In this document: positions 888 through 60,882 of the stretch, one piece after another
Layout of the letters: each line of letters starts with the position of its first letter
How positions within the stretch are numbered: the stretch's first letter is position 1
Assembly (NCBI GenBank): GCA_963833025.1
Contig: CAWHWI010000003.1
Span: 618,338 to 682,337, forward strand
DNA: 64,000 bases
Direction: 5' to 3'
Source: an uncultured delta proteobacterium
GTDB taxonomy: Bacteria > Desulfobacterota > Binatia > Binatales > Binataceae
Made by a program: the position numbers and the translations under genes
The notes under the pieces: model-generated
Seen by the model: only the letters and a program-made list of their open reading frames with translations
Told to the model about the DNA's origin: nothing
Database searches by the model: none

Positions 888-1033
888 CCTCTACTTCATT
901 GAACCGCACCCTCCACGCGACTGCAAGCACGCTCTTCGGACACTGTCCACCGGTCAGTAATCACTGGACTAATCAACGCGCGACTTGAGCGCATCCTGAT
1001 ACACTTCGCGACGCGTCGACCTTCCCCCAAGCT

Positions 1034-1160
1034 GTTCTAACAGGGACGAAGTCCCGCATCTTTATCTTAGTACTGGGTGCAGGGGTCACCCCTGCCCAAG
1101 GAGGTGTGGAACCCACGGTGGGTTCCACGTTTCAATTAAATGATTTACCCTTCCCCCTCC
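1034..1160 (+). repeat. multi-hairpin intergenic repeat element, copy 1 (modules B-C-D plus tail)
   Basis: Contains ctaacagggacgaagtcccgcatc, gcaggggtcacccctgc and gtggaacccacggtgggttccac followed by an attaaatgattt-cccttcc tail. Homologous to copies at 22803, 34116, 59631 and 60714. Confidence 0.85.
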
Positions 1161-2023
1161 TCGCTCGATTTGATCGCCCCCTGATACACTTCGCGACGCC
1201 CCATCCCGGTCAGCCGCGCGATCACCGCGCTCGCCTGTTTCAGCCCAAGTCCGGCCTCACGCAGCACCTCGAGCGCTTCATGCACGTCGATTGCGACGTT
1301 TCCCGCGTCCGGCTGCTCCGGCGCGCCCGCGACGACGATTACGATTTCTCCGAGCGCCGGCGTCGCGCGAAACCGCCGTTCCAGCTCACCGAGCGTCCCG
1401 CGCAACGTGCGCTCGTAGGTCTTGGTGATTTCGCAGACGACCGCCGCATCGCGCGATTCCCCGAATGCGGCCGCCATTGCGCCAATCGTATCGGCGACCC
1501 GACGCGCCGCTTCGTAAAAAACCATCGTGCGCGGCTCGCGACGCAGTTCTTCGAGCACCTTGCGTCGCGCCGCGTCGCGGGCCGGAACAAATCCCTCGAA
1601 GGTGAACTTGTCAGTCGGGATTCCCGCAATCGACAGCGCCGCGATCGCCGCCGACGCTCCCGGCACCGCGACGACTCGCACATTTGCCTCCAACGCCGCC
1701 CGCACCAGCCGAAAGCCGGGATCCGAAATCGCGGGCGTGCCCGCGTCGGTGACAAGCGCGATTTTTTCGCCCGCCTTCAGTCGCTCGACGAGCTCCGGCA
1801 CGCGCCGCTCTTCGTTGTGCTCGAAGTGGCTTACCGTCGGCGTGCGAATCTGATGGCGCGCGAGCATCTGCCCGGTGCGCCGCGTGTCCTCGCATGCGAT
1901 CAGCGCGACCTCCGCGAGCGTGCGGATCGCGCGCGCCGAGAGATCGTCGGGATTCCCGATCGGCGTCGCGACCACATACAAAATTCCGCCGGCCTCGGTT
2001 TGTCTATTTGCGCGAGTCGCCAT
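1145..2023 (-). CDS. rsmI: 16S rRNA (cytidine1402-2'-O)-methyltransferase
   Basis: ILYVVATPIGNPDDLSARAIRTL...ACEDTRRTGQML, tetrapyrrole-methylase fold typical of RsmI. Confidence 0.88.
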   Translation of the reverse strand: MATRANRQTEAGGILYVVATPIGNPDDLSARAIRTLAEVALIACEDTRRTGQMLARHQIRTPTVSHFEHNEERRVPELVERLKAGEKIALVTDAGTPAISDPGFRLVRAALEANVRVVAVPGASAAIAALSIAGIPTDKFTFEGFVPARDAARRKVLEELRREPRTMVFYEAARRVADTIGAMAAAFGESRDAAVVCEITKTYERTLRGTLGELERRFRATPALGEIVIVVAGAPEQPDAGNVAIDVHEALEVLREAGLGLKQASAVIARLTGMGRREVYQGAIKSSEEGEG

Positions 2024-2060
2024 TACAATTCACACTGACTATTCGCCCGGAGTAATCAGC

Positions 2061-4508: not shown

Positions 4509-6008
4509 TCAATGAAGCATCGCGACGGCCGCGCCCGAAGTCGACAGCACAACCTGGTTGAGATGCACCAGCGAAGTGTTGAGGAGGCCCAAAATCGCAT
4601 GCGGATAAACGCCGAGTATCAGCACGATCACGCCAAGTGGCACCAGCGTGAACGCCTCGCGAAACGACAAATCCGGAAGGTCCTTGTACTTCTCGTTCAA
4701 CGGCCCAAGATAGATTCGCTGGAACGTCCACAGCAGGTAGCCGGCCGTCAGTATCGCCGTCGCCGCGCCAAACACGACCATCAGCGGATGCGTCTGCCAC
4801 GCTCCGAGCAGCACCAGCACTTCCGAAATAAACGCGGACATCCCCGGCAGTCCCATGCCCGCGAAAAACGCGAAGCCCGTAATCGCCGTATAGATCGGCA
4901 TCTGCTGCGCCAGACCGCCGAAGCCGTTTATCTCGCGATGGTGTGCGCGATCGTAAATCACGCCGACCAGGATAAAGAGCATCGCGGTAATCGTTCCGTG
5001 ATTGAACATCTGCAGCACCGCGCCGTTGATCCCCGCCGCAGTGAACGCCGCCAGCCCGAGCATCACGTAACCCATGTGGCTAATCGACGAATAGGCAATC
5101 AACTTCTTATAGTCAGTCTGCGCCATCGCGCACATCGCGCCGTATACTATGTTGATAGTGCCGATCACCCCAAGGAACAGCCAAGCGAGCTGATAGCTCG
5201 CCGCTGGCAGCACCGCGAAATTGACGCGGAGAATTCCGTAGGTGCCCATTTTCAGTAGTACACCCGCAAGAATCACTGAGATCGCCGTCGGCGCTTCAAC
5301 GTGCGCGTCAGGCAGCCAGGTATGGAACGGGAACGCCGGAATTTTGATCGCGAAGCCGATGAATAGCGCGATCCAAGCTATTCGTTGGAATCCAATTGAG
5401 TAGTGACTCGAATTCGCCGCCAGCTCGGTCAAATCAAACGTCGGAGTCGCGCCATAGTAATACAGTCCGAGCATCGCCAGCAGAATGAGTACTGAGCCGA
5501 GTAGTGTGTACAGAAAGAACTTGATCGCCGCGTACTCGCGTCGCGGACCGCCCCAGATGCCGATGAGAAAATACATCGGCAGCAGCATCACTTCCCAGAA
5601 AATGTAGAACAGGAAGAAATCCAGCGACACGAACACGCCCATCATTCCGGTGTCGAGCATCAACAGCATCGCGTAATAGCCTTTCTCCGCGCGATTGATG
5701 CCGAAGCTCGCGAACACCGAGATGAACATGATGAGCGCGGTCAGCAGGATCATAGAGATGCTGATACCGTCCACGCCGATGAAGTAACTAATGTGGTATG
5801 CGGGCATCCACGACGCTTTCTCGGCGAACTGCACCGCGCTGGTCGTCGTGTCGAAGTTTTCGTAAAGGTAAATTGCGATTAGCAGCTGCGGTATCGTCGC
5901 CGCCACCGCGATCCACTTCGACGCGTTCTTCATCGAGTCGGGCAGCGCGAGAATCAGCACCATCCCGGCGATCGGAACAAAGGTTATCAGCGTAAGCGCG
6001 TGACTCAT
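4509..6008 (-). CDS. nuoM: NADH-quinone oxidoreductase subunit M
   Basis: 499-aa antiporter-like subunit; position and similarity to NuoM. Confidence 0.93.
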   Translation of the reverse strand: MSHALTLITFVPIAGMVLILALPDSMKNASKWIAVAATIPQLLIAIYLYENFDTTTSAVQFAEKASWMPAYHISYFIGVDGISISMILLTALIMFISVFASFGINRAEKGYYAMLLMLDTGMMGVFVSLDFFLFYIFWEVMLLPMYFLIGIWGGPRREYAAIKFFLYTLLGSVLILLAMLGLYYYGATPTFDLTELAANSSHYSIGFQRIAWIALFIGFAIKIPAFPFHTWLPDAHVEAPTAISVILAGVLLKMGTYGILRVNFAVLPAASYQLAWLFLGVIGTINIVYGAMCAMAQTDYKKLIAYSSISHMGYVMLGLAAFTAAGINGAVLQMFNHGTITAMLFILVGVIYDRAHHREINGFGGLAQQMPIYTAITGFAFFAGMGLPGMSAFISEVLVLLGAWQTHPLMVVFGAATAILTAGYLLWTFQRIYLGPLNEKYKDLPDLSFREAFTLVPLGVIVLILGVYPHAILGLLNTSLVHLNQVVLSTSGAAVAMLH

Positions 6009-6060: not shown

Positions 6061-8136
6061 TCATGCCCGCGCGACCGCGCGCACCAGCAGTATCAGCATC
6101 ACCGCGGCCAGGATTCCGTAGAGATATCCGTTAATCGAACCGGTCTGCAGCCGCCGGAGCCTGCCGCCAACGTCGAGCGTCAGGTTCGACGCGAAGTTCA
6201 CCAGCCCATCGACTATGTAATGGTCGAATAGTCCAGACAGCCAGGACAGAAATACTATTACCCGCGCCGCGAGATTAACTACTCCGTCAATTATATTCGT
6301 GTCGAACCAGGCCAACGCCCGCGTCGCGAATAGGTATGGCTGAATAACTACTCGATCGTAAAATTCATCGACATAGTATTTGTTGTATACCCATTCGTAA
6401 GGCACTCCGCCGAACATCTGGCTAAAGCGCGCGGGATCGAGCTTCTCTTGCCGATACATCAAATCAGCAAGGTACCATCCAGCGGCCACCACTATGAAAG
6501 TGACACCAGCGAACGTCCCCTCGACCAGATGATTGTGCATTCCCGACTCGGTAACGCGACGCGTGACGTCTGATCTGAGAATGGGCTCAAGGAATTCCTC
6601 GAACGGTTTGAACGCGATGATAAATTCCGGCCACTTCAACCATCCACCGACGACCGAAAGCGTGCCCAGCACAATCAGCACGTAAGCCATGGAGGGCGGC
6701 GATTCGTGCAGATGGTGCTCCTGCTCATGCGTGCCGCGAAATTCGCCGAAGAAAGTCATGTACACCTGACGCGACATGTAGAAGACGGTGAATCCGGCAC
6801 CTAGCAGCAGGAACGCCCACACGACGAAATGCCCATGCGAGAACGCCTGCCATATGATCTCATCTTTGGAGAAGAAGCCGGCAAACGGGAAAATGCCACA
6901 GAGCGCGAAGGTCGCTGCGACGAAGGTCCAGAACGTGATCGGCATCTTATGGCGCAGGCCGCCCATCTTGCGCATGTCCTGCTCGCCGCCCATCGCGTGA
7001 ATCACCGACCCCGATCCCAGGAACAGGCAGGCTTTGAAGAACGCATGCGTCATCAGGTGGAACACGCCGGCCGCGTATGCTCCGACGCCCATCGCCGCGA
7101 ACATGTATCCGAGCTGGCTCACCGTCGAGTACGCGAGCACCTTCTTGATGTCGTTTTGCGCGATGCCAATCGTCGCCGCGAACAGCGCGGTCATACCGCC
7201 CACCAGCGCAATCACGCCCATCGTGAAGGGCGACATCGAAAATAAAAAATTCAGCCGCGCCACCATGTACACGCCTGCCGTCACCATCGTCGCCGCATGG
7301 ATCAGCGCGCTGACCGGAGTCGGCCCGGCCATCGCGTCCGGCAGCCACACGTACAGCGGTATCTGCGCCGACTTTCCGGTCGCGCCGATGAACATCAACA
7401 GCGTGACGAATCCCACCAGCGTGTGCGCCGAATGGTAGCCTGCAAAATTTATCGGCACTCCCGACAGCAACGGCGCGTACTTCGCGACCTCGCGCGTCAC
7501 CAGCGTCGGATGCCCGAGCGCATCGAGTCCCGCGAACAAACTGTACAACGCGATCACGAACGCCAAGTCACCGACGCGGTTCACGATGAACGCCTTGTTG
7601 CCCGCCGTCGTGTTCGCCGTCACCTTGTACCAGAACCCAATCAGCGCGAACGAGCACAGCCCCACGCCTTCCCAACCCACAAACATCAGCCACAGGTTGT
7701 CGCCCAGCACCAGCACCAGCATCGCGAACGTGAACAGGTTGAGCCATCCGAAGAATCGCCAGTAGCCGTCGTCGTCGTGCATGTAGCCGGTCGAGTAGAT
7801 GTGAATCAGGCCGCCGACGCCGGTGATTATCAGCGTCATGATCATAGACAACGGATCGAGCCAGAACGCGATGTCGAGGTTCAGTCCGCCGACGTCGAAC
7901 CACTTCCACAAGTCGTCGAGCATGAAGCGGTTGTCCGGCGGCAACGTGAGCATCGCGAAAAACGCGCGCGCCGCCAGGATGAACGCCAGGATCACGACGC
8001 CGCATCCCACCAGGCTGATCGCGCGCTTGCCGAAGGTCTTCTGCAGCCACGCGCCGGCCAGGAAATTGACCGCCGCGCCCAAAAGCGGCAGCACCACGAT
8101 CAGTCGTATGAACGTAACCGGTATCGGGTGATCCAT
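6061..8136 (-). CDS. nuoL: NADH-quinone oxidoreductase subunit L
   Basis: 691-aa antiporter-like subunit with long C-terminal extension; position in operon. Confidence 0.93.
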   Translation of the reverse strand: MDHPIPVTFIRLIVVLPLLGAAVNFLAGAWLQKTFGKRAISLVGCGVVILAFILAARAFFAMLTLPPDNRFMLDDLWKWFDVGGLNLDIAFWLDPLSMIMTLIITGVGGLIHIYSTGYMHDDDGYWRFFGWLNLFTFAMLVLVLGDNLWLMFVGWEGVGLCSFALIGFWYKVTANTTAGNKAFIVNRVGDLAFVIALYSLFAGLDALGHPTLVTREVAKYAPLLSGVPINFAGYHSAHTLVGFVTLLMFIGATGKSAQIPLYVWLPDAMAGPTPVSALIHAATMVTAGVYMVARLNFLFSMSPFTMGVIALVGGMTALFAATIGIAQNDIKKVLAYSTVSQLGYMFAAMGVGAYAAGVFHLMTHAFFKACLFLGSGSVIHAMGGEQDMRKMGGLRHKMPITFWTFVAATFALCGIFPFAGFFSKDEIIWQAFSHGHFVVWAFLLLGAGFTVFYMSRQVYMTFFGEFRGTHEQEHHLHESPPSMAYVLIVLGTLSVVGGWLKWPEFIIAFKPFEEFLEPILRSDVTRRVTESGMHNHLVEGTFAGVTFIVVAAGWYLADLMYRQEKLDPARFSQMFGGVPYEWVYNKYYVDEFYDRVVIQPYLFATRALAWFDTNIIDGVVNLAARVIVFLSWLSGLFDHYIVDGLVNFASNLTLDVGGRLRRLQTGSINGYLYGILAAVMLILLVRAVARA

Positions 8137-14099: not shown

Positions 14100-14510
14100 G
14101 GCAGAATCAAGCGCGGGGCTGCGCGCCCCGCACCCGCGGCAGGGGTGACCCCTGCACCCGGTACGGGGAGAAGAGGCGGCCTTCGCCCTATTCCTAACCT
14201 CTCCTTGTCCGAGGAGAGGTCGGCGCGAGCCGAAGGTGAGCGACGGGAGAGGTGCAACGCTGGCCGAACAGTTGCGCGTATTTGTGCTGCTGTCGGGCGG
14301 TGGAGTCAGTGTCTTTGCATTGCGGTTAAACGAGTCGGTCTGGTGGGCTGTCAGGCGTTGCACCTCACCCGGCGACACCGCTGCGCGGCTTACGCCGACC
14401 TCTCCTCGGACAAGGAGAGGTTAGGAACAGCGCGTCAGCCCGCATCTTTCTTCTTTCTTGAAACTGGGTGCAGGGGTCACCCCTGCCGAGGGTGCGGGGC
14501 GAGGAGCCCC
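14100..14510. repeat. composite foldback element with ~115-bp inverted-repeat arms, each containing an A-module and a C-like hairpin, around a ~170-bp centre
   Basis: Left arm 14100-14220 is the reverse complement of right arm 14394-14510. Both include cctaacctctcc..ggagagg and gcaggggt(c/g)acccctgc. The centre has a nested inverted repeat ggtgcaacgc / gcgttgcacc. Confidence 0.8.
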
Positions 14511-14514
14511 GCGT

Positions 14515-19395: not shown

Positions 19396-19440
19396 GAACC
19401 TAACCCCTAACCCCTTCCCTAGAGGGAAGGGGAACCGTCG
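19396..19440. repeat. GC-rich palindrome ccccttccc-taga-gggaagggg preceded by cctaacc cctaacc direct repeat (A-module-like)
   Basis: 9-bp perfect stem between convergent genes; shares the cctaacc motif with the repeat family. Confidence 0.5.
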
Positions 19441-20488: not shown

Positions 20489-21541
20489 TCACCTGTCCAC
20501 GTGCTCCGTGTAAGGACTGGAAAAGACGAATTCCGTGACGTCGCCCGCGGTCGTGATTCGCCCCACCTTGCCGTTGGGCTCGGTGAACCAGAGGTTGCCG
20601 TCGGGGCCGGCCGTGATGAAAGTTGCCATCGACTTTGCGGGCATCGGGAACGCCGTGAAGTCGCCGCCGGGAGTCAGGCGATAGATCAGTTGCGCGCGAA
20701 TCACAGTGATCCAGAGATTTTTGTCGGCGCCCGCCGCGATTCCGAGAGGCACTCCTGTCGTGGGCAGCGCGAACTCCGTGATGAAACCGTCGGGTGTGAT
20801 CCTGCCAATTTTGCTGGCCTGCGGCTGGGTGAACCACACGTTACCGTCGGCGCCTAGCGCCATCATCGCGGGGCGGCTGTCGGGCAGCAGGATTGCGAAT
20901 TCCTTGACGTTCCCCGAGATGGTGACGCGCGCGATACGATTAACCTTGTCTTCGGCGAACCACAGATTGCCGTCGCTGCCACCGACTATTTCGGCGGGAC
21001 CCGTCCCCTTGAGCAGCTCGATCTCGGTCAGAGTGCCGGTGGTGCTGAGGCGTCCGATGCGATTGCCGGAATGCTCGGTGAACCACAAATTGCCGTCGCG
21101 ACCCGAAGTGATTCCCGCCGGTCCGCTGTCCGAATGAGGCAATTTGACGTACGCGATTTTTCCGTCGGGAGCGACGCGGCCGATGCGGTTGCCGAGCGTA
21201 TCGGTGAACCACACTGCGCCGTCGGGGCCGGCGGTGATTCGCTCGGCGAATCCGTCGGGATCGATCCGAAAACGCTTGGTGGCGCCGTACGGAGTCATCT
21301 GTCCTATCGCGTCGCCCTGGTACTCGGTGAACCACAGGTTGCCGTCGAGGCCCGCCGTGATTGCGTACGGCGCATGCGTGCCGACGGGCGCTCCGGTCGG
21401 CGTCGGCTGCGCGCTCGGAACGGCCGCGGCGCTGATGTTCCCCGAGGGCGACGGTCGCTTCGCGGCGCATCCCGCTACGATCGCGAGCGCGGCGGCAAAA
21501 ATCGTGACCGTCAGTGCGCGGCTGATCGAGGGATTGCTCAA
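20489..21541 (-). CDS. Vgb (streptogramin lyase)-like beta-propeller lipoprotein; likely TTG start at 21541 overlapping upstream stop (TTGA)
   Basis: Signal peptide with lipobox AIVAGC and repeated DGNLWFTE propeller motifs. Confidence 0.68.
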   Translation of the reverse strand: MSNPSISRALTVTIFAAALAIVAGCAAKRPSPSGNISAAAVPSAQPTPTGAPVGTHAPYAITAGLDGNLWFTEYQGDAIGQMTPYGATKRFRIDPDGFAERITAGPDGAVWFTDTLGNRIGRVAPDGKIAYVKLPHSDSGPAGITSGRDGNLWFTEHSGNRIGRLSTTGTLTEIELLKGTGPAEIVGGSDGNLWFAEDKVNRIARVTISGNVKEFAILLPDSRPAMMALGADGNVWFTQPQASKIGRITPDGFITEFALPTTGVPLGIAAGADKNLWITVIRAQLIYRLTPGGDFTAFPMPAKSMATFITAGPDGNLWFTEPNGKVGRITTAGDVTEFVFSSPYTEHVDR

Positions 21542-22725
21542 TTGACGATCCGATTGGCTCTCAACTCGGAAATCTCGCCCGCGCCGAATCCGAACTCGCC
21601 GAGAATTTCGTCGGTGTGCTGTCCCAGGTCGGGCGCATGGCGCCATAACTCCGGCTCGGTGCGCGAAAATCGCGCGGGCGATCGCACGGCGCGGACGCGT
21701 CCCGCCCGTGGATGCTCGTATTCGAAAAACGTTTCATTCGCGACGAACTGCGGATCGTTCCAGATCGAGTCGTAGTCGTTGACCGGCCCGCATGGAACGT
21801 CGGCGGCCTCGATCCGCTCGAGCCAATACGCAGAGGGCTGAGTCGGGAACAGCGTGATCAGGCTCTTGATCGATCGCCTCACTCGGTCCGGCCGCGGCTC
21901 GTCGCCTTCGAACCATTCCGGATGCCCAACCGCCTTGAGAATCGCCGTCCAATGCTTGTCGGTCAGCGGTGCAATCGTAATGAAGCCGTCCGCCGTCTGA
22001 AACGGCTCGAGCGTGTTCATCGACGGTGGCACGCCGGCGTCGTGCGGAAGATAAGTGTGGCGCGACGCCGTGTCGGGCATCAGGTAGTAGGCGACGGCGT
22101 CGATCATCGCGATCTTGAGATGCTGTCCTTTGCCACTGCGCTGCGACTCGGTCAGCGCCGCGAGTATCGAAATTGCTGCCGTCATGGCAGTGACCTTGTC
22201 GCCGAGAATATTCTTGACGGCGCGCGGCCGGCCCTGCGTGCGCTGCGAGGTCATCACTCCCGCCATCCCCTGGATAATCGGATCGTAAGCGGGCTTGTTG
22301 ACCGACGGCCCCGAAAAACCGTAGCCGGCGATCGAGCAATAGACAATTTTCGGATTGCGCGCCGCGACCGCCTCGTAGCCGACGCCCAGCCGATCGACAA
22401 CTCCGGGCCGTACGTTCTGCACGACGACGTCGGCCCGCTCAGCCATCTTGAGAAAGACCTCAGCGGCGCCCGGCTGCTTGAGGTCGAGCATCATCGCGCG
22501 CTTGTTGCGATTCCAGTTCAGGATGCTCACCGTGACGCCGCCACGCTCGCGCCCGGTCAGCATCCGCGACACGTCGCCGTCGGGCGGCTCGATTTTTATT
22601 ACGTCGGCGCCGAGGTCACCGAGCATCATGGTGCAGAACGGTCCCGACACCACCATGCTCAAATCAAGTACGCGGATTCCTTCCAGCGGTCCCATCGATG
22701 CCTCCGGGAAAATTGCTCCAAGCAC
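21538..22725 (-). CDS. CoA transferase family III (CaiB/BaiF)
   Basis: GIRVLDLSMVVSGPFCTMMLGDLGADVIKIEPP signature. Confidence 0.85.
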   Translation of the reverse strand: MLGAIFPEASMGPLEGIRVLDLSMVVSGPFCTMMLGDLGADVIKIEPPDGDVSRMLTGRERGGVTVSILNWNRNKRAMMLDLKQPGAAEVFLKMAERADVVVQNVRPGVVDRLGVGYEAVAARNPKIVYCSIAGYGFSGPSVNKPAYDPIIQGMAGVMTSQRTQGRPRAVKNILGDKVTAMTAAISILAALTESQRSGKGQHLKIAMIDAVAYYLMPDTASRHTYLPHDAGVPPSMNTLEPFQTADGFITIAPLTDKHWTAILKAVGHPEWFEGDEPRPDRVRRSIKSLITLFPTQPSAYWLERIEAADVPCGPVNDYDSIWNDPQFVANETFFEYEHPRAGRVRAVRSPARFSRTEPELWRHAPDLGQHTDEILGEFGFGAGEISELRANRIVN

Positions 22726-22802
22726 TGCCGATCAAACGGCGCAGCCAGTGTTGCTTATAGTTCAACCCTCATTCGACTCACAACGACCTGACGTTTTCCC
22801 CC

Positions 22803-22912
22803 TCTAACTTTTAACAGGGACGAAGTCCCGCATCTTCTCTTAATACTGGGTGCAGGGGTCACCCCTGCCGAAGGAAGCGTGAAACCCACCGCGGGTTTCA
22901 CATCTAATTACG
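22803..22912 (+). repeat. multi-hairpin intergenic repeat element, copy 2 (B-C-D)
   Basis: ttttaacagggacgaagtcccgcatc...gcaggggtcacccctgccgaaggaagcgtgaaacccaccgcgggtttcac. Confidence 0.85.
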
Positions 22913-24449
22913 TGAACCGCCCACTCTTGACTGCGATTTCGCGCAGCTTCACGACGCGCGATTGTATCGCGCGGCTCCGGCGCATCCGCTCCAGCGTCAG
23001 CGGTATCCGATACGTCCAGTTCGAATCGCTGATCGTTCCCGGCCGATTGATTCGCGCACTCCATCCGAACAAATCCTGAATCGGAATGATCACCAGCTGC
23101 GACGGCGCCGCATACAGCATGGCCAGGATTGCATCGCGCGCCGATTCCTCGAGCATCCGGCGCGGATTCACTTTGCCCTCGAGCCCGAGCTCGCGCACGA
23201 ACTTCTCGCGCTCTGCGATAGGCTGCGAATGCCACCAAACGGTCAGAGGTTCAGTGTCATGCGTGCCGGTAGTCGCGAGCGAAAGTTCGGGATAGGTCGA
23301 CGGGCCGAGAAATGGTTCGTCGGCGTGGCCCCAGTCGCGCTCCCACTGCATCACCTTATATCCCGGCACGCCCAGCCGCGTGAGCGATTGGCGCACCCAC
23401 GGCGGCACGGTGCCGAGGTCTTCCGCGATCAGCTCGGTCGCCCCGACCTCCTGCTTGATAGTGCGAATCACTTCTTCGCCCTGGCGCAGTTGATCGACTT
23501 CGTCTATCGGCGTGAAAATTCCCGGCGCGTCCAGTTCGGAGCCGAAATTGAAAGTTCGATAAAGCCCAACGACGTGATCGATTCGAAGCAAATCGTAAAG
23601 CGCGCTGGCATGACGCGCACGCGCGCGCAGCACCTTGAATCCCTCCGCGCGCATCTGAGACCAGTTCGGCAGCGGCAGGCCCCATCGCTGTCCCTTGGGA
23701 TTGAAACCGTCGGGGGGAGCGCCCACGGTGCGCGACAAATCGAACTCGCCCTGGTTTGCCCACACCTCGGCGCTGTCGCTGCACGGCGAGAACGCGAGAT
23801 CTCCGCCGATAAACGCGCCGTGCGACGATGCGTACGCGCGCATCTCCGACCACTGCCGATGCGCGACGAACTGCCAGTGGCAGTACATCTCGATCGCGTC
23901 GGCCAGATCGCGGCGCGCGAGCGCGAGCGCGGCGGAATCGCGCTTCGCAATTTCAGCCGGCCACGTTTCCCAGCTGGTCCAGTTGAAGCGCTCCTTGAGC
24001 GCGCGAAACAGCGCATAGTCATGAAGCCAGTACGAGTTGGCCTCGATGAAGGCGTCGAGCTGCGCGCCGTCATCGCGTCCGCCGCGCGCGCGAGTCGCCC
24101 GGTACGCGCGCTCGAGCAACACAAACTTCTCCCGCCGTGTGATCGCGCGCGGCACAAAGCGCGCCTTCCCGACCGCCTGGCGTGCGCGCGCCTGCACGAC
24201 CCGCCCGACTCCCGGCAGCCCGCTTACCGATATGTACATCGGATCGATCGCCATCACGCTCATCGCGCTGTACGGGCTGAGATCGTCAGGCCCCGTCTCG
24301 TCCAACGGCAGCAGCTGAATCACGCGATGACCCATCGACAGCGCGAAGTCGATCATCGGCGCGAGACTGAGGATTTCGCCGCGTCCGAGATCGTCGCGCG
24401 TGCGAATCGAGAACAGTGGAATCAGGATTCCCGCGGACCGCGTCAGCAT
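22908..24449 (-). CDS. malQ: 4-alpha-glucanotransferase (amylomaltase, GH77)
   Basis: MLTRSAGILIPLFSIRTRDDLGRGEI...GDLAFSP...IIPIQDLFGW GH77 motifs. Confidence 0.9.
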   Translation of the reverse strand: MLTRSAGILIPLFSIRTRDDLGRGEILSLAPMIDFALSMGHRVIQLLPLDETGPDDLSPYSAMSVMAIDPMYISVSGLPGVGRVVQARARQAVGKARFVPRAITRREKFVLLERAYRATRARGGRDDGAQLDAFIEANSYWLHDYALFRALKERFNWTSWETWPAEIAKRDSAALALARRDLADAIEMYCHWQFVAHRQWSEMRAYASSHGAFIGGDLAFSPCSDSAEVWANQGEFDLSRTVGAPPDGFNPKGQRWGLPLPNWSQMRAEGFKVLRARARHASALYDLLRIDHVVGLYRTFNFGSELDAPGIFTPIDEVDQLRQGEEVIRTIKQEVGATELIAEDLGTVPPWVRQSLTRLGVPGYKVMQWERDWGHADEPFLGPSTYPELSLATTGTHDTEPLTVWWHSQPIAEREKFVRELGLEGKVNPRRMLEESARDAILAMLYAAPSQLVIIPIQDLFGWSARINRPGTISDSNWTYRIPLTLERMRRSRAIQSRVVKLREIAVKSGRFT

Positions 24450-28958: not shown

Positions 28959-29339
28959 ATGGTTCAGCAGCACACATCGTCCGAGCACCTCAACGCGACT
29001 TTCTCGGCGCTCGCCGATCCCACTCGCCGCGCGATCCTCGCTCGCCTCGCGTCGGGCGAGACTTCCGTGTCCGAGCTGGCCGAGCCCTTCGAGATGAGCA
29101 TGCCCGCCATCTCCAAGCACCTGAAGGTGCTGCAGCGCGCGGGCCTGATCGAACGCGGCCGCGAGGCGCAATGGCGTCCGTGCCGGCTCGCCGCCGGTCC
29201 GCTCAAGGACGCCTCGGACTGGCTCGATCGCTATCGCCGTTTCTGGGAGGAGAGCTTCGATCGCCTCGAGGATTATCTGCGCGAGCTGCAGAAGCGCGAA
29301 TCACAAAAGAAGGAGACCAAAAATGGCCGCAAAAAGTAG
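28959..29339 (+). CDS. ArsR/SmtB family transcriptional regulator
   Basis: FSALADPTRRAILARLASGETSVSELAE...SMPAISKHLKVLQRAGLI wHTH. Confidence 0.85.
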   Translation: MVQQHTSSEHLNATFSALADPTRRAILARLASGETSVSELAEPFEMSMPAISKHLKVLQRAGLIERGREAQWRPCRLAAGPLKDASDWLDRYRRFWEESFDRLEDYLRELQKRESQKKETKNGRKK

Positions 29340-29844
29340 CGCCGCCGCTCAATCCGACTCGCGCGAGCTGGTCGTCACCCGCGTCCTCGACGCGCCGCGC
29401 GCCCTGGTGTGGAAAGCACTCACCGAGCCCGAGCGCCTCGAGCACTGGTGGGGGCCGAAGGGCTTCACTTCAAAGGTCCACAAGCTCGAGCTGCGCCCCG
29501 GCGGCATCTTCCTCTACAGCCAACGCACGCCTGACGGCCGCGAGATGTGGGGCAAATGGGTCTATCGCGAAATCGTCGCGCCCGAGCGGCTGGTGAGCGT
29601 CTCTTCCTTCACCGATGAGAAGGGTAATTCGATCCCGCATCCTTTGATCCCGAACTGGCCGCTGGAGATTCTGGGCGTGTCCACGTTCACCGAGCGTCAG
29701 GGCAAGACCACGATGGTCGTGCGGATGGTCCCGGTAAACGCGACCGAGTCGGAGCGCAAGACTTTCGAAGAACACCTCAATTGGATGGAAGAGGGTTTTG
29801 CCGGAACTCTCGAAAAGCTCGACAAATACCTGGCGTCACTCTGA
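29323..29844 (+). CDS. SRPBCC/AHSA1 (Aha1-like) domain protein, paralog 1
   Basis: RVLDAPRALVWKALTEPERLEHWWGPKGF signature. Confidence 0.8.
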   Translation: MAAKSSAAAQSDSRELVVTRVLDAPRALVWKALTEPERLEHWWGPKGFTSKVHKLELRPGGIFLYSQRTPDGREMWGKWVYREIVAPERLVSVSSFTDEKGNSIPHPLIPNWPLEILGVSTFTERQGKTTMVVRMVPVNATESERKTFEEHLNWMEEGFAGTLEKLDKYLASL

Positions 29845-29878
29845 GGCATCATCACCAACAGGCTGAAGGAGAGCAGCT

Positions 29879-29989
29879 ATGCAACTCAATCCCTATCTGA
29901 ACTTCGATGGCAACTGCGCCGCCGCGTTCAAGTTCGTCGATCAATTCGGCACGCCCTGGATGATCAACTGCGAGGGCGAAGCGCGATGA
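29879..29989 (+). pseudogene. 36-codon remnant of a PhnB/VOC-like gene (N-terminus only), translationally coupled (ATGA) to next gene
   Basis: MQLNPYLNFDGNCAAAFKFVDQFG matches the conserved N-terminus of PhnB-like VOC proteins, then stops. GAAGGAG SD upstream. Confidence 0.5.
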
Positions 29990-30480
29990 CTTCCGCAAGG
30001 CCGACGATATCCGATTCCGCGCCGGAAGATACCTCGGATCGCGAGATCGTCGTCACCCGAGTTTTCGACGCGCCGCGAGCGCTCGTGTTCAAGTTGTGGA
30101 CTGATCCGCAACATGTCGCGCGATGGTGGGGGCCGAATGGCTTTAGCACCACGACTTATGAGATGGACGTGCGGCCGGGCGGCGTGTGGCGCTTCGTCAT
30201 GCACGGACCCGACGGCCGGGATTATCAGAACAAGGTCGCATATGTCGAAATCGCCGAGCCCGAGCGACTGGTTTACAAGCATGTCTCCGGTCCGCAATTT
30301 CAAATGACGGTGACCTTTGCCGACGCCGGCGACAAGACGAGGCTCACGGCGCGGATGCTCTTCGAGTCAGCCACCCTGCGCAACAAGGTCATCGAAGAAT
30401 TCGGGGCCGTCGAGGGACTCAAGCAGACTCTCGGACGCCTCGACGATTATGTGAACCATACTAAGGAGAGCATCCGATGA
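29986..30480 (+). CDS. SRPBCC/AHSA1 domain protein, paralog 2
   Basis: RVFDAPRALVFKLWTDPQHVARWWGPNGF. Confidence 0.8.
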   Translation: MTSARPTISDSAPEDTSDREIVVTRVFDAPRALVFKLWTDPQHVARWWGPNGFSTTTYEMDVRPGGVWRFVMHGPDGRDYQNKVAYVEIAEPERLVYKHVSGPQFQMTVTFADAGDKTRLTARMLFESATLRNKVIEEFGAVEGLKQTLGRLDDYVNHTKESIR

Positions 30481-30929
30481 CTTCAAACACCGAAGTTACA
30501 GTTGGCGATCGCGAGCTCACCATCACGCGCATCTTCGACGCGCCCCGCCCGCTGGTTTTCTTCGCGTGGTCAAGACCCAAACATCTGATGCGTTGGTTCG
30601 CGCCCAACAACTTCACCGTGTCGGAGTGCGAGATGGACTTCCGCGAGGGCGGAAAGTTCCGGCTGTGCATGCGCGGCTTCGGCAAGGACCATTGGATGAA
30701 CGGCGTCTTTCGCGAAATCGTCAAGCCGGAGCGAATCGTCTGGAGCAGCTTGTTGGATAACGACACCAACGAAGTGGTCACGACGGCGACGTTCACCGTT
30801 ATGGGCGGCGGCAAGACCATGCTCACAGTGCATCAGACCTACTCGATCGAAACTGATTCGACCCGCGGTGCACCACAGGGATGGTCCGAAACCCTCGATC
30901 ATCTCGCCGAATTACTGGCGGACGCCTGA
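30477..30929 (+). CDS. SRPBCC/AHSA1 domain protein, paralog 3
   Basis: RIFDAPRPLVFFAWSRPKHLMRWFAP; ATGA overlap with paralog 2. Confidence 0.8.
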   Translation: MTSNTEVTVGDRELTITRIFDAPRPLVFFAWSRPKHLMRWFAPNNFTVSECEMDFREGGKFRLCMRGFGKDHWMNGVFREIVKPERIVWSSLLDNDTNEVVTTATFTVMGGGKTMLTVHQTYSIETDSTRGAPQGWSETLDHLAELLADA

Positions 30930-30954
30930 CGGAATCGACTGAAGGAGAATTATT

Positions 30955-31425
30955 ATGGGAGCAGCAGTTAACCTGGTAAGCGAGCCTGCGGATCGCGTGC
31001 TTAAAATCGAGCGCGTCTTCGACGCGCCGCGCAGTCTCGTCTTCAAAGCCTGGACCGAGCCCGAGCACATCGCGAAATGGTGGGGTCCGCGCGGCTTCAC
31101 CAGCACCGTTCTCAAAAACGATCTGCGCCCGGGCGGCGCCTATCGAATCCACATGCGCGGACCCGACGGCGATCACTGGACGCAGGGCATCTATCGCGAA
31201 GTGGTCCCTCCCGAGCGGCTGGTCATGGTCGGGAGCTGGGCCGATGCGCAGGGCAATCCAACGCGCCCCGAAACGACGCTGACGCTGCTGTTCGAGGATC
31301 TCGGCGGCAAGACCAAGCTCACTCTGCACAACGCGGTCTTCGAATCGGTCACGGCGCGCGATTTGCACCAGGGCGGATGGACCAGCGCGCTCGATTGTCT
31401 CGCCGAATACCTGGCAACTGCCTGA
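30955..31425 (+). CDS. SRPBCC/AHSA1 domain protein, paralog 4
   Basis: RVFDAPRSLVFKAWTEPEHIAKWWGPRGF. Confidence 0.8.
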   Translation: MGAAVNLVSEPADRVLKIERVFDAPRSLVFKAWTEPEHIAKWWGPRGFTSTVLKNDLRPGGAYRIHMRGPDGDHWTQGIYREVVPPERLVMVGSWADAQGNPTRPETTLTLLFEDLGGKTKLTLHNAVFESVTARDLHQGGWTSALDCLAEYLATA

Positions 31426-33214: not shown

Positions 33215-34105
33215 ATGCAAAACCCGCAGGAATACTATAAGAGCGAAGGGCCAATGACAGCTCTGGGAGCGCACGCGGAAGAATTCCGCGCGATGCCCAC
33301 GGACCTCGCCTCGCTATGCGAGGTCGTACAGGGCTTGCTGATTCATCGCGATATTGCGCCATGGCTGTACGGCCTCACGCTGACCGAGGCGCAGCGCGAC
33401 GACGGCAACATCCGCCCGATCGCGAAAATGCTGACGCGCATTCACGAGCTCGATTCGCGCCCGATCACGAGCGCGCGCGACGTCGGCCACCGGCTCCCCA
33501 GCGTATGCCGTCATTTTTCGCTGATGCTCAGCGCCATACTCCGGTATCAGGGCATACCGGCGCGGCCGCGATGCGGCTTCGGCGCCTACTTCACGCCGGG
33601 CAAGTTCGAAGACCATTGGGTGTGCGAGTATTGGAACGCCGGCGAGAAGCGCTGGATATTGGTGGACGCGCAGCTCGACTCGATTCAGCGCAAAGCCTTG
33701 AACATCAATTTCAACCCGCTCGACGTGCCGCGCGACCGCTTCATAATCGCGGGCAACGCGTGGCAGATGTGCCGCACCGGCGCCGCCGATCCCGCCAACT
33801 TCGGGCTCACGCACGTCCACCTGCAGGGGATGTGGTTCATCGCCGGCAACGTGGTCCGCGATCTCGCGTCGCTCAACAAAATGGAACTGCTACCATGGGA
33901 CGTCTGGGGCTTGATGGATATGAACGACGCCGCACTGACCGACGAGAAAAAATCCCTACTCGATCGCGTCGCAACTCTAACCCTCGCGGGCGACAACGCG
34001 TTCCCCGAAGTCCGCGCAATCTACAACGACGATCGCCTCCGCGTCCCACCACTTGTCTTCAACGCACTGCGCAACGCCCCCGAACCAATCGCGAGCGAGA
34101 ACTAA
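33215..34105 (+). CDS. transglutaminase-like cysteine protease domain protein (start may be ATG 33254)
   Basis: CRHFSLMLSAILRYQGIPARPRCGF...HWVCEYW...WILVDAQ, consistent with the Cys-His-Asp transglutaminase core. Confidence 0.72.
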   Translation: MQNPQEYYKSEGPMTALGAHAEEFRAMPTDLASLCEVVQGLLIHRDIAPWLYGLTLTEAQRDDGNIRPIAKMLTRIHELDSRPITSARDVGHRLPSVCRHFSLMLSAILRYQGIPARPRCGFGAYFTPGKFEDHWVCEYWNAGEKRWILVDAQLDSIQRKALNINFNPLDVPRDRFIIAGNAWQMCRTGAADPANFGLTHVHLQGMWFIAGNVVRDLASLNKMELLPWDVWGLMDMNDAALTDEKKSLLDRVATLTLAGDNAFPEVRAIYNDDRLRVPPLVFNALRNAPEPIASEN

Positions 34106-34115
34106 CGCTTAACAA

Positions 34116-34230
34116 GTTCTAACAGGGACGAAGTCCCGCATCTTCTCTTGGTACTGCGTGCAGGGGTCACCCCTGCCGAAGGAAGCGTGAAACCCACCGC
34201 GGGTTTCACATTCAATTGAGTTCCTCCGCC
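34116..34230 (+). repeat. multi-hairpin intergenic repeat element, copy 3 (B-C-D)
   Basis: gttctaacagggacgaagtcccgcatc...gcaggggtcacccctgccgaaggaagcgtgaaacccaccgcgggtttcacattcaattga. Confidence 0.85.
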
Positions 34231-34240
34231 CTCTCCTGTC

Positions 34241-35752
34241 TCACCGACCGCCCGCTGCTGGCGCCGGCGCCGCCGGGCGCGACGGCTTTGGCATGTGGAT
34301 GTAGAGCTTGTCCGCCGCCGGACGGCCGTCGGTATGCATCGACGGCGGACGCATCGCGTACTTCACTTCGCGCGCGTGCTCGGCGAACTGCCGATCCGGG
34401 TTGTACACGCTGTTGAACTTCCACAGCATCTTGATGAAGTTGGTCTGCCCCTTCAGCGCGAGCTTGCCCGCGATCGACGCTACCGACTTCAGCGCCGCGA
34501 ACCCAAGATGCTTGCGGTTGAGCACGTCCTGCGTCTTCACCAGCTCCTGGTAGAACTGCAGCAGCGGCAACTTGGTCGGCAGCACCGCGTGCTGGATGTC
34601 GTACAGCCGGTAGTCGAGCGTCGTCAGCTTGCGCGATTCGGTGAACCACAGCTCGGTGCCGGGATACGGCGTCGCCACCGTCAGATGAACGATCTCGGGG
34701 ATGCTGATCGCCCATTCGCGAATCACCTCGAAGCGCTTCACGTCCCACGACGGGTCCGCGATCAGGTTGACCGCGACGGTCAAGCCAATCTCGCGCGCCA
34801 CTTCGAGCGCCTTGAAGTTGACGCCCATCGACGAGCGCTTGCGATGCAGCTTCAGGCCTTCTTCGTCGATCGCTTCGAGGCCCAGGAACATGTACTCCAT
34901 GCCGAGCTTGCGCCAGTAGCGGAACACTTCCGGATTGCGGCACAGTACGTCGGCGCGAGTCTCGAGGTAGTACTGCTTTTTGATTTTGCGCTTTTCGATT
35001 TCGTGCCCGATCGCGAATCCATGCTCCGGATGGATGAACGCGACGTCGTCCACGATGAAGACGTTCGGCTCTTTGATCGACAGCATGTCTTCGGCCGCCG
35101 CTTCCGGCGTCGATTTGCGGTAGCTGCGTCCGTAAAACGTCCACGCGCTGCAGAACGAGCAATCCCACGGGCATCCGCGGGTGAACTCGATCGACGCGCA
35201 CGGATCGAGCACGCCGATAAAATATTTGTTGCGCCGGCGCCCGAGATCGCGCGCGGGAAAAAACTTGTCGAGATCGTCGAGCATGACCGGCGTCGGCCCG
35301 GAGCCTTGCGTCGTCAACACGCCCGGAACTTTGCCAATCGAGCCGGTGCCGATTGCGTCGAGGAGCATCGGGGTCGCCGTCTCGCCCTCGCCGCGGATGA
35401 CCGCGTCGATCGCGCCGTCCGCATGCTCCAGAATTTCGTCGGCGACGAAGGAGCCGCTGTGCCCGCCGGTGAAGACGAAGCAGTCCTTCATCAGGCGCTT
35501 CACGTCCTTGGCGAGATCGATCACCTCGGGCACGTTGGCGAGGTAGTTGAGCGAGAAGCCGACCGCATTGGGCCGGAAGCTCTCGAGCTCGGCAAACAGA
35601 TCACGATGCTTGAAAATCTGCAGGTCGAGGATTCTGACGTCATGGCCGGCCGCGCGCGTGGCCGCCGCCACCCGCTCCATTCCCAGCGGTTCGAGCCGCA
35701 AATAAATCTCGCTGTACATAAGCGGACTTGGATGTACGAATAGGACCCGCAT
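34241..35752 (-). CDS. B12-binding domain radical SAM protein (candidate hopanoid-associated HpnJ-like)
   Basis: N-terminal B12-binding region (VLFVHPSPLMYSEIYLRL) and CxxxCxxC motif FTRGCPWDCSFC. Lies near hpn genes. Confidence 0.78.
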   Translation of the reverse strand: MRVLFVHPSPLMYSEIYLRLEPLGMERVAAATRAAGHDVRILDLQIFKHRDLFAELESFRPNAVGFSLNYLANVPEVIDLAKDVKRLMKDCFVFTGGHSGSFVADEILEHADGAIDAVIRGEGETATPMLLDAIGTGSIGKVPGVLTTQGSGPTPVMLDDLDKFFPARDLGRRRNKYFIGVLDPCASIEFTRGCPWDCSFCSAWTFYGRSYRKSTPEAAAEDMLSIKEPNVFIVDDVAFIHPEHGFAIGHEIEKRKIKKQYYLETRADVLCRNPEVFRYWRKLGMEYMFLGLEAIDEEGLKLHRKRSSMGVNFKALEVAREIGLTVAVNLIADPSWDVKRFEVIREWAISIPEIVHLTVATPYPGTELWFTESRKLTTLDYRLYDIQHAVLPTKLPLLQFYQELVKTQDVLNRKHLGFAALKSVASIAGKLALKGQTNFIKMLWKFNSVYNPDRQFAEHAREVKYAMRPPSMHTDGRPAADKLYIHMPKPSRPAAPAPAAGGR

Positions 35753-59603: not shown

Positions 59604-59630
59604 AAAAGTCTTCTCGTATTTCTTGTCCTG

Positions 59631-59797
59631 ATCCTAAGCTCTCCTTGTCCGAGGAGAGGTTAGGATCTTCCCCTTTACAAACTTCTAACAGGGACGAAGT
59701 CCCGCATCTTTCTTAGCACTGGGTGCAGGGGTCACCCCTGCCGAAGGAAGTGTGAAACCCACCGCGGGTTTCACATTAAACAATTGATTTCCCCTTC
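59631..59797 (+). repeat. multi-hairpin intergenic repeat element, copy 4, full length (A-B-C-D-tail)
   Basis: tcctaagctctccttgtccgaggagaggttagga...ctaacagggacgaagtcccgcatc...gcaggggtcacccctgc...gtgaaacccaccgcgggtttcacattaaacaattgatttcccc. Confidence 0.88.
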
Positions 59798-60649
59798 CTA
59801 TACATACAACGACGCGATCTTCTTCAGCGTCCCCTCCGCACTCTCGAACGTGAGAGCTCCCAACCCCGCGACAAACCGCCCCGCGCCCGCCGCGGCAAAC
59901 TCCTTCAGCCCGTCCTGCACCTGCGCGCGATCGCCGCGGATTCCGCCCATGATCGTGATGTCCAACTCCGCGAAATTCCTGCCGGCCGCCGCGCACTCGC
60001 GCTTGAGTTCATCGACGCGCGTTTTCAATTGCGCCGCGTTCAACGCGATAGGGCACCATCCGTCCGCCCACTTCGCCACGCGCTTGAGCGCGTTCTTGTC
60101 CAGGCTGCCGATCAGCACGGGAGGCCCCGACTTCTGCGCCGGTTTCGGCAGCGACTTCACCGGCGGAAACTTGACGTACTTGCCGTCGCATGACGATTGA
60201 TCTTCGGTCCACAGCTTGCGCATCGCGGCGACAATCTCGGCGGTTTCGCTCCAGCGATGAGGGAAATCGACGCCGAACAAATCGCTCTCCTCGCGCAGCC
60301 ATCCCGCGCCGATCCCGAACAGCAAGCGGCCGCCCGAGTACGTGTCCAGAGTCGCGATCTGCTTGGCCAGCGCAAGCGGCTCATGCTCCGGGACGAGACA
60401 GATTCCGGTGGCAAGTTTCAGATTTTTGGTAACCGCAGCCGCCATGCTGAGCGCGATCATCTGATCGGCCATCGTGAAGTACTGCGGCGGAATCGGCCCT
60501 CCGGTAGGAAACTGCTGGACGGGATTAGCGGGCATCGCCGGATGCTCAGGCACCCAAATCGACTCGAACCCAAGCGATTCTGCGACTCGTGCAAATTCCG
60601 CAGGATGAGCATTCGTGCCGGTGAACGGCGTCAGCAATCCAATTTTCAT
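59798..60649 (-). CDS. LLM class (luciferase-like) F420-dependent oxidoreductase
   Basis: MKIGLLTPF...LPKPAQ.. LLM fold; AAGGAG SD before ATG 60649. Confidence 0.8.
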   Translation of the reverse strand: MKIGLLTPFTGTNAHPAEFARVAESLGFESIWVPEHPAMPANPVQQFPTGGPIPPQYFTMADQMIALSMAAAVTKNLKLATGICLVPEHEPLALAKQIATLDTYSGGRLLFGIGAGWLREESDLFGVDFPHRWSETAEIVAAMRKLWTEDQSSCDGKYVKFPPVKSLPKPAQKSGPPVLIGSLDKNALKRVAKWADGWCPIALNAAQLKTRVDELKRECAAAGRNFAELDITIMGGIRGDRAQVQDGLKEFAAAGAGRFVAGLGALTFESAEGTLKKIASLYV

Positions 60650-60713
60650 TTTTTCTCTCCTTGTCAGAGTCCCCAGTTCTAACAAATCCTCCCGTGAATA
60701 ACCTCACGCCCGG

Positions 60714-60882
60714 GTCCTAACCTTTCCTTGTCCGAGGAGAGGTTAGGATCTTCCCCTAACAAAGTTCTAACAGGGACGAAGTCCCGCATCTTTTCTTAGT
60801 ACTGGGTGCAGGGGTCACCCCTGCCCAAGGAAGCGTGAAACCCAGGAGGAGTTTCACATTAAATTAAGTGATTTCCCGTTCC
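60714..60882 (+). repeat. multi-hairpin intergenic repeat element, copy 5, full length (A-B-C-D-tail)
   Basis: gtcctaacctttccttgtccgaggagaggttagga...gttctaacagggacgaagtcccgcatc...gcaggggtcacccctgc...gtgaaacccaggaggagtttcacattaaattaagtgatttccc. Confidence 0.88.

Follow-up and report, generated by a model that had tools for sequence, protein, structure and literature searches.

Compensatory base changes keep the hairpins of a modular intergenic repeat paired in Binataceae

In this work, we followed up a hairpin with apparent compensatory base changes in a 64,000-nucleotide stretch of Binataceae DNA (the window) and found that this hairpin, here called D, is the third stem-loop of a modular intergenic repeat of ~120 to 170 bases with the order A1 - C - D - T tail. 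Pairing in the stems of the repeat is maintained through compensatory change and in situ purifying selection, while its spacers drift approximately neutrally. We consider it probable, at roughly 60%, that D is one palindromic unit of a new mosaic, high-copy extragenic family of Binataceae, a functional analogue of the enterobacterial REP/BIME elements, whose hairpins must fold as single strands, be it as RNA or as single-stranded DNA. The compensation in the D stem is real yet usual for REP/BIME-like repeats; the family itself is new and comes from an uncultured phylum.

A degenerate search for the D pattern matched the window at exactly five places, all of them on the plus strand, compared to no match in dinucleotide-preserving shuffles of the same DNA. 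These five sites share a repeat of ~123 nt, and two further units, of a different type (E), bring the number of C cores to seven in 64 kb (Table 1). The polarity of the unit is fixed: a 5' hairpin (A1, A2, or A3) is followed by a spacer, the C hairpin, a linker, a 3' hairpin (D, E, or F) and, often, the T tail. A1 has a 5-bp stem and a 3-nt loop, with the consensus TTCTAACA-GGGAC-GAA-GTCCC-GCATC, and precedes a pyrimidine-rich spacer. C, the almost invariant centre of the unit, has 7 bp and 3 nt (CTGG-GT-GCAGGGG-TCA-CCCCTGC-C) and is joined by a purine-rich linker (GAAGGAAGC or CAAGGAGGT) to D, with 9 bp and a 5-nt loop. On the 3' side of D come an A/T-rich stretch (ATTnAATnAAGT) and then, often, the T tail GATTTnCCCTTCCCC. 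In the two E-type units, which lie head-to-head with their A sides facing, the 3' module of the C hairpin is GCGGGGC-GnGnA-GCCCCGC, realized as GCGGGGC-GAGGA-GCCCCGC in the plus-strand unit. Folded as a single strand, the unit forms three hairpins on either strand, and the plus strand folds with a z score of -4.1.

Table 1. Positions of repeat units, their modules and associated features; positions refer to the window unless a locus is named
Feature	Position	Strand	Modules	Remark
Duplication arm 1	973-1014	+		Decaying remnant of the original rsmI 3' end; 995-1014 identical to 1180-1199
Whole repeat unit, copy 1	1015-1157	+	A1 1035-1060, C 1073-1096, D 1106-1128, T tail 1140-1154	143-nt insertion relative to five related genomes
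rsmI stop codon	1145-1147	-		Inside the T tail of copy 1
Duplication arm 2	1158-1199	+		Now encodes the last conserved rsmI codons (minus strand)
Inverted E-type partner	14113-14223	-	E 14113-14131, C 14138-14161, A1-like 14173-14191, H 14193-14223
E-type unit	14395-14512	+	H 14395-14425, A1-like hairpin, C 14464-14487, E 14494-14512
Repeat unit, copy 2	22791-22913	+	A1 22809-22834, C 22846-22869, D 22879-22901	Stop codon of a malQ-like gene (22908-22910) inside the D tail
Repeat unit, copy 3	34099-34232	+	A1 34117-34142, C 34154-34177, D 34187-34209	Tail variant AGTTCCTCC; between convergent genes, hpnR stop at 34241
Composite unit, copy 4	59627-59798	+	H 59633-59663, A1 59683-59708, C 59719-59742, D 59752-59774, T 59784-59798
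Composite unit, copy 5	60710-60881	+	H 60716-60746, A1 60765-60790, C 60802-60825, D 60835-60857, then T	Inner stem of D damaged
Toxin-antitoxin locus 3' of hpnR, L239	2535-3121
Toxin-antitoxin locus 3' of hpnR, L241	3310-3606
Toxin-antitoxin locus 3' of hpnR, L242	1751-2433

Several further features of the window accompany these units. A further kind of hairpin, H (CCTAACCTCTCC-ttgtccg-GGAGAGGTTAGG), lies 5' of A1 in some of them. Copies 4 and 5 are composites of ~170 nt (H-T-A1-C-D-T) that stand as direct repeats 1083 nt apart and bracket a single luciferase-like monooxygenase gene, a layout that looks like a cassette. Other hairpins that directly follow stop codons, CCCTCTCCC-tatca-GGGAGAGG and CCCCTTCCC-taga-GGGAAGGGG (window ~2935-2956 and ~19411-19433; also L015 and L108), are seemingly unrelated to the repeat; the latter arm of the second, however, matches the T tail and recurs in other genomes. 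The T tail (GTGAtttCCCCT) is also complementary to AGGGGTCAC, the 5' arm and loop of C (A3 columns 74-82 with 134-145), and this alternative pairing (window ~1080-1088 with ~1141-1152) is favoured by RNAalifold on the plus strand, with a variable position that pairs poorly (GC 8, GU 5, GA 3). Of the long-range helices that RNAalifold suggested, GCAUCU/GGGUGC and the pairing of the T tail with the C 5' arm, we adopted neither, as they are invariant or poorly supported.

D reads GTGGAACCC-ACGGT-GGGTTCCAC in copy 1 and GTGAAACCC-ACCGC-GGGTTTCAC in each of copies 2, 3, and 4. Both paired positions thus differ at stem pair 4, A:T having become G:C, just as the first-pass annotation had stated for a hairpin that it rightly placed within 1101-1130. 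This G:C state marks a subfamily (~17% of copies) and is linked to an A-to-G change in the linker; being tied to a subfamily and to changes that do not pair, it represents one inherited event as far as the window is concerned, and not a local compensation. Copy 5 (GTGAAACCCAGGAGGAGTTTCAC), which had been taken for another structure-preserving variant, is instead a damaged copy: its loop variant, GTGAAACCC-AGGAG-GGGTTTCAC, is intact in other genomes (L008, L104, and L167), and copy 5 adds to it a single G-to-A change that disrupts the inner stem, so that 7 bp remain, or 9 bp if an A is bulged out. The open reading frame called mechanically at 1106-2038 (plus strand), with the GTG of the D hairpin as its start, is a spurious shadow of rsmI (1145-2023, minus strand). 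A coding reading of the element in general, either as a frame running through it or as a Shine-Dalgarno-like GGAGG with a start codon after it, was rejected on the grounds of frame-breaking indels in the loops, variation that follows pairing instead of codons, and wrong spacing.

Copies beyond the window were gathered with the C hairpin as the only seed, from at least 117 loci of a genome collection and at least 120 loci of a metagenome collection; since D took no part in the seeding, the resulting D set is unbiased. Together, they comprise at least 302 unique C-core copies from Binataceae metagenome-assembled genomes (MAGs) and soil metagenomes, and almost all genome matches listed come from Candidatus Binatus or from Binataceae MAGs. 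The proteins of the window are 89 to 100% identical to Binataceae or Binatus proteins. Of the 302 copies listed, 194 have D on the 3' side of C, 30 have F, 26 have E, and 52 have another neighbour there; on the 5' side, C is preceded by A1 in 97 and by A2 or A3 in 49 of the copies listed, with something else in the rest. With its varied neighbours on both sides of C, the element is a mosaic, whose A1/A2/A3, C, D/E/F, T, and H modules are combined in many ways, with swaps between orthologous sites. The copies are nearly identical in sequence across copies and species and are flanked by unrelated housekeeping genes, and extrapolation suggests a few hundred of them per genome. A search of a plasmid collection gave no match to the element, and viral contigs gave only five, three of which are ordinary Binataceae-like units and therefore indicate no phage link.

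The 20-nt C hairpin (GTGCAGGGGTCACCCCTGCC) was also seen, in identical form, in Polymorphobacter (Alphaproteobacteria) and in similar metagenome contigs (L221 ~5902-5990; L072 ~7141; L132 ~1278-1382 and ~4953-5018; L005, L030, L058, and L077). There, it is flanked by CGCCGGAGGCyCTT and arranged in tight, REPIN-like inverted doublets with a spacer of 12 to 27 nt, without A or D modules. That different phyla share an exact REP core suggests either horizontal transfer or a recognition protein common to them.

In the sets seeded solely on C, the D stem is 97 to 99% paired, and in the genome set (n = 100 D copies) 98.7% of all stem cells pair. Three of the nine pairs switch Watson-Crick type (A:U/G:C, U:A/C:G, and G:C/U:A/A:U). 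In the genome set, pair 1 is GC in 92 copies, AU in 3, and UA, CG, and GU in 1 each; pair 2 is UA in 84, CG in 13, and UG in 2; and pair 4 is AU in 74, GC in 21, GU in 1, and something else in 3. The independent metagenome set (n = 80) gives the same picture, with GC 63, UA 8, and AU 3 at pair 1, UA 70 and CG 6 at pair 2, and AU 67 and GC 12 at pair 4. In the pooled copies (n = 190, DNA letters), the counts are G:C 163, T:A 9, A:T 8, and C:G 1; T:A 164 and C:G 19; and A:T 149 and G:C 33, respectively. The first-pass annotation had argued that the hairpin itself is selected, as opposed to just its primary sequence, and had named substitutions random with respect to pairing in a larger copy set as the outcome that would speak against it; in these ~190 copies, the substitutions follow the pairing. 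That argument is supported, with the caveat that the inner five D pairs are 97 to 99% invariant and the flanks almost invariant, which indicates that the primary sequence is constrained as well.

The covariation score of the genome set is 0.117, compared to 0.050 ± 0.003 in column shuffles (reached by 0 of 500), although related sequences can exceed such shuffles even without structure; partners slid out of register score at most 0.038, and the metagenome set scores 0.114 compared to 0.048. The behavior of related sequences in shuffles is also what lends some credit to a reading without any structural selection, in which a repeat was amplified recently and the paired differences are just linked mutations that its subfamilies inherited, as is the fact that the G:C state of pair 4 comes with linked changes that do not pair. 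This reading has difficulty in explaining why three pairs change, through several Watson-Crick types and on several backgrounds (every compensated type of pair was seen on two or more haplotype backgrounds, as defined by the other variable sites), why the signal collapses in the slid-partner controls, and why stems that are one pair shorter have lost the C and the G together. Nor does it account for the orthologous copies and the other modules described below, which all behave alike. We regard it as already largely refuted and its remaining probability as minimal.

Seven pairs of copies could be assigned to the same intergenic site in different genomes by their flanking proteins. In the D stems of these orthologous pairs, four of the five changed base pairs are compensated and one is not, while unpaired positions differ at 59 of 195 (30%) and the flanking genes have an identity of 0.80 to 0.83 at 4-fold sites. 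Copy 4, for example, has GTGAAACCC...GGGTTTCAC where its orthologue in L057 has GCGGAACCC...GGGTTCCGC. At one and the same site, the A-side module may be swapped or absent in different genomes. The insertion of copy 1 is shared with L254, and here the A1, C, and D stems show 0 changes in 42 positions, compared to 11 in 101 for the non-stem positions. The latter rate is about that of the 4-fold sites, which differ between the window and L254 at 22 of 148 and 10 of 90. Stems that remain unchanged while the spacers change at about the neutral rate argue for purifying selection on the stems after insertion, and both the orthologous pairs and the shared insertion thus stand against an origin of the paired differences by inheritance alone.

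Compensatory change is a property of all modules and not special to D. A1 occurs as GGGAC/GTCCC in 55 copies (with a GAA loop), GGGC/GCCC in 15, GGCGC/GCGCC in 6, GGCC/GGCC in 5, and GGGGC/GCCCC in 3; the A2, E, and F stems covary in the way that A1 does; and even the C stem has the variants GCAGGGC...GCCCTGC and GCAGGGT...ACCCTGC. On the plus strand of the unit, the loops of A1, E, and F nearly always have G first and A last, as at window 1043-1055 (GAA 75, GTCA 9, GTAA 4; also GCGCA and GAGGA), while the D and C loops are without such strand asymmetry. CGAAG is the core of the very stable DNA mini-hairpin d(GCGAAGC). As for the type of strand that folds, single-sided changes of the G.U type, set against those of the A.C type, are equally frequent on the two strands (12 compared to 11), with no relation to the transcribed strand, and offer no positive evidence for RNA over single-stranded DNA.

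A second kind of covariation connects the linker with the D loop. The nucleotide that directly follows the C stem and the third one of the loop covary (A2 columns 27 and 51; in copy 1, window 1097 and 1117; in copy 3, 34178 and 34198). The genome set has G:C 43, C:G 42, and other 4, and the independent set has C:G 41, G:C 28, and other 3, so that ~95% of the copies are complementary across the two. We rely here on fixed-column counts, since a generic statistic of linker-loop complementarity is significant but dominated by trivial 2-bp matches. This pair has the highest mutual information of the alignment and both of its states occur on both pair-4 backgrounds; the pair beside it is a nearly invariant C:G, and the variants GCGG/GCGGA and ATCGC lengthen the complementarity to 3 to 4 bp. 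Together with the folding score of the plus strand, these features would fit C and D being a dedicated structured RNA instead of a generic palindromic repeat, locked by a linker/D-loop pseudoknot and recognized by a protein, for example in 3'-end processing, termination, or localization. Yet a linkage of equal strength exists between positions that cannot pair, linker position 35 (A or G) and stem position 41, the fourth of the stem (A:A 152, G:G 32, 5 exceptions), so that subfamily structure alone can mimic the linker/loop signal. In E-type modules, moreover, the corresponding linkage is one of identity and not of complementarity, and a pseudoknot helix of just 2 bp is marginal. Given also that the units occur in both orientations relative to genes, that G.U changes show no strand asymmetry, and that Rfam gives no match, we judge a dedicated RNA of this kind to be quite improbable.

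The spacer between rsmI and aroQ measures 257 nt in the window but 18 to 85 nt in five relatives without the element, in which rsmI is 85 to 94% identical and the order purU-rsmI-aroQ-accB-accC is kept. The additional DNA consists of the 143-nt unit, lodged in the last rsmI codons, and of a flanking 42-nt duplication of the rsmI 3' end, whose arms are still identical over 20 nt; the T tail of copy 1 now encodes the last six rsmI codons and the TAA stop. After the stop codon of hpnR, next to copy 3, four orthologues (83 to 91% identity) have no unit. Insertion at the 3' ends of genes, or into them, is thus how units are gained, and orthologous sites exchange modules. The stretch that follows hpnR is variable in other respects, too: it carries toxin-antitoxin pairs that differ between Binataceae genomes (BrnT/CopG, HicA, and Gp49/HTH; Table 1).

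How the units insert is less uniform. Repeats of at least 13 nt between the two flanks were found at 5 of 264 copies (13 to 28 nt), compared to 2 of 1315 controls, indicating that duplication is not a constant signature of insertion, and a search for a short target-site duplication at the copies found none, only the occasional long duplications. For copy 1, allele replacement by recombination is an alternative to transposition. Of the two arms, the one nearer to its insert is similar to another rsmI allele (as found in L253), a hint of recombination with foreign DNA rather than of transposition. Two further sites have duplications of their own: in L085 (~380-1000), a unit is flanked by a 28-nt direct duplication inside a duplication of at least 150 nt that includes an older, decayed D-T module, and in L024 (minus strand, around the core at 7305-7324) a unit is flanked by a direct duplication of ~13 to 22 nt.

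If the linker/loop covariation and these duplications are taken together, C and D could be conceived as a discrete folded module, of RNA or single-stranded DNA, that contains a covarying pseudoknot of 2 to 4 bp, is recognized by a dedicated protein, and spreads by a RAYT-independent templated copy-in that leaves target duplications of 20 to 42 nt and is able to rewrite the last codons and the stop of the recipient gene. We consider this very doubtful; if true, the C-D pair would not be an ordinary REP but would represent a new class of structured, mobile modules at 3' ends. Should either the long flanking duplications or the pseudoknot-like covariation turn out to be a general feature, this would point to an unknown mechanism of recognition or spreading.

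More weight has to be given to the idea that the repeat is a purely selfish, non-autonomous mobile element, either a MITE or a PATE-like derivative of IS200/IS605, whose hairpins are needed as single-stranded DNA for transposition and have no function for the host. Insertion polymorphism and near-identical sequences across copies and species are what such an element would produce, the REPIN-like tight inverted doublets of the identical C hairpin in Polymorphobacter would suit it as well, and the G...A loops of A1, E, and F on one strand, with their CGAAG motif, suggest a defined top strand. A transposase, however, was not found in a 1.58-Mb sample of element-rich loci: tblastn with E. coli RayT against this thin sample and the window gave a best E value of 0.34, a spurious hit inside an SDR gene, for a RAYT/Y1 gene. 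The units have neither terminal inverted repeats nor a short constant target duplication, and their D ends are placed beside stop codons in a strong and polar manner. The old shared insertion of copy 1 keeps its stems while its spacers drift neutrally, which points to selection after insertion and is unexpected for a purely selfish, immobile copy unless it still serves as a source copy. For these reasons, we hold a purely selfish element to be unlikely.

The polar placement became apparent from the genes around the copies, which were called with a crude codon-bias gene caller written for this analysis, on which the following counts rest. The D side points toward a stop codon in 105 copies and toward a start codon in 55, and the distance from the stop codon to the C core (interquartile range, 48 to 64 nt) corresponds to the end of the D module or of the T tail. 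By gene context, 43 copies lie between convergent genes, 38 between co-directional genes with D toward the upstream gene, 23 between co-directional genes the other way around, and 14 (12%) between divergent genes. Neighbouring units less than 600 nt apart are head-to-head in 27 cases, tandem in 4, and tail-to-tail in none. In the window, each of the five D copies follows a minus-strand gene. Since about one-third of the D copies face the start of a gene and 12% of the contexts are divergent, a role in the upstream mRNA cannot hold for every copy. Two repetitive coding regions of the window are recorded here for completeness, an open reading frame at 20489-21646 (minus strand) with internal repeats of a 123- to 126-nt period and four tandem paralogous frames of ~150 to 170 amino acids at 29323-31425 (plus strand).

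These observations allow us to speculate on what a REP/BIME-like Binataceae repeat might do. The conservation of its stems suggests that the element acts as a folded single strand. As the D/E/F end lies directly against the stop codon of whichever gene reads into the unit, its most likely role for the host would be that of a stem-loop cluster in the 3' untranslated region of the mRNA that reads into this end, where it may form a barrier to 3'-to-5' exonucleases and/or a site of termination or processing independent of a U-tract, as for REPs. The near identity of the inner stems and of C across hundreds of copies and many species implies, in addition, a sequence-specific partner, which might be a RAYT-like single-stranded DNA enzyme or another binding protein, and/or homogenization by copy-and-paste.

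The present work provides the first described extragenic palindromic repeat family for Binatota, a widespread uncultured soil phylum, and defines its module grammar, boundaries, and polarity. For annotation, it matters that spurious reading frames, such as the one starting in the D hairpin of copy 1, cross the elements and that the T tail supplies genes with real stop codons; repeats of this kind also matter for the assembly and binning of MAGs. Moreover, filled and empty orthologous sites offer a clean natural experiment, in which stems are under selection after insertion and spacers drift.

Compared to known elements, some classes can be set aside. Integron attC sites were rejected because the units are dispersed among syntenic housekeeping genes (purU-rsmI-aroQ-accB-accC) and have three hairpins each instead of one, and a MITE assignment was rejected because the unit ends carry a direct motif, CCTTCCCC, and not inverted repeats. 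Intrinsic terminators are similar in being stable, GC-rich stem-loops right after stop codons, often between convergent genes, but their hairpins are idiosyncratic, whereas the Binataceae repeat reuses a few near-identical sequences at many genes. It also has no U-tract in the gene-sense orientation, D being followed by GCUUCCUUC and E by ACCCGC, and a terminator and promoter scan called none of the element's hairpins, with total calls equal to the shuffle expectation. Among known RNA families, Rfam 15 has no match in the window at the gathering score and, in a permissive scan of copy 3, only chance-level matches with E values of 8 to 10; a search for tRNA and tmRNA found none.

The pneumococcal BOX elements (boxA-boxB-boxC) and the neisserial Correia elements are composites of separable modules that are dispersed between genes, are predicted to fold, and can affect neighbouring transcripts. 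In composite make-up, intergenic dispersal, predicted folding, and possible influence on nearby transcripts, the Binataceae repeat resembles both, with no sequence relation to either. Neither the terminal inverted repeats nor the TA duplications of Correia elements occur here, and the modules of BOX are not known to be independent covarying hairpins each.

The REPIN/RAYT system of Pseudomonas fluorescens and others is closer, as it likewise combines repetitive, extragenic, palindromic sequences with compensatory changes and insertion polymorphism. Compensatory changes have been described as common in REPIN hairpins (PMC3116915). In this system, a single-copy RAYT gene (Y1/HUH transposase) is flanked by REPs, which occur mainly as inverted doublets with a short, fixed spacer that form one long hairpin, whereas the Binataceae copies are overwhelmingly single; their inverted pairs, ~23 among the ~290 copies listed, have a variable spacing of 75 to 490 nt and look like two independent units at 3' ends. 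Some Binataceae insertions are, furthermore, flanked by duplications of 20 to 42 nt, and the one of 42 nt is unlike any known signature of REP/RAYT insertion.

The closest parallel is found in the enterobacterial REP (PU) sequences and BIMEs, including those of Escherichia coli. Here as there, imperfect palindromes that are short (~20 to 40 nt) and rich in GC occur in many, strictly extragenic copies, mostly 3' of genes or between convergent genes, and both families form mosaics with other short motifs and preserve their stems. Work by Higgins, Gilson, and Bachellier reportedly proposed protection of mRNA 3' ends and protein binding as roles of REP. The sequences of the Binataceae repeat are unrelated to those of enterobacterial REPs, a RAYT was not found in the sample, and its host belongs to an uncultured phylum. 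While a classical BIME alternates the orientation of the same palindrome, the Binataceae unit combines three different hairpins in fixed order and polarity, and it swaps A1/A2/A3 and D/E/F as cassettes. It nevertheless shares with REP/BIME a stem-loop palindrome, a high and dispersed copy number, an extragenic bias toward 3' ends with divergent sites being rare, and a mosaic combination of modules.
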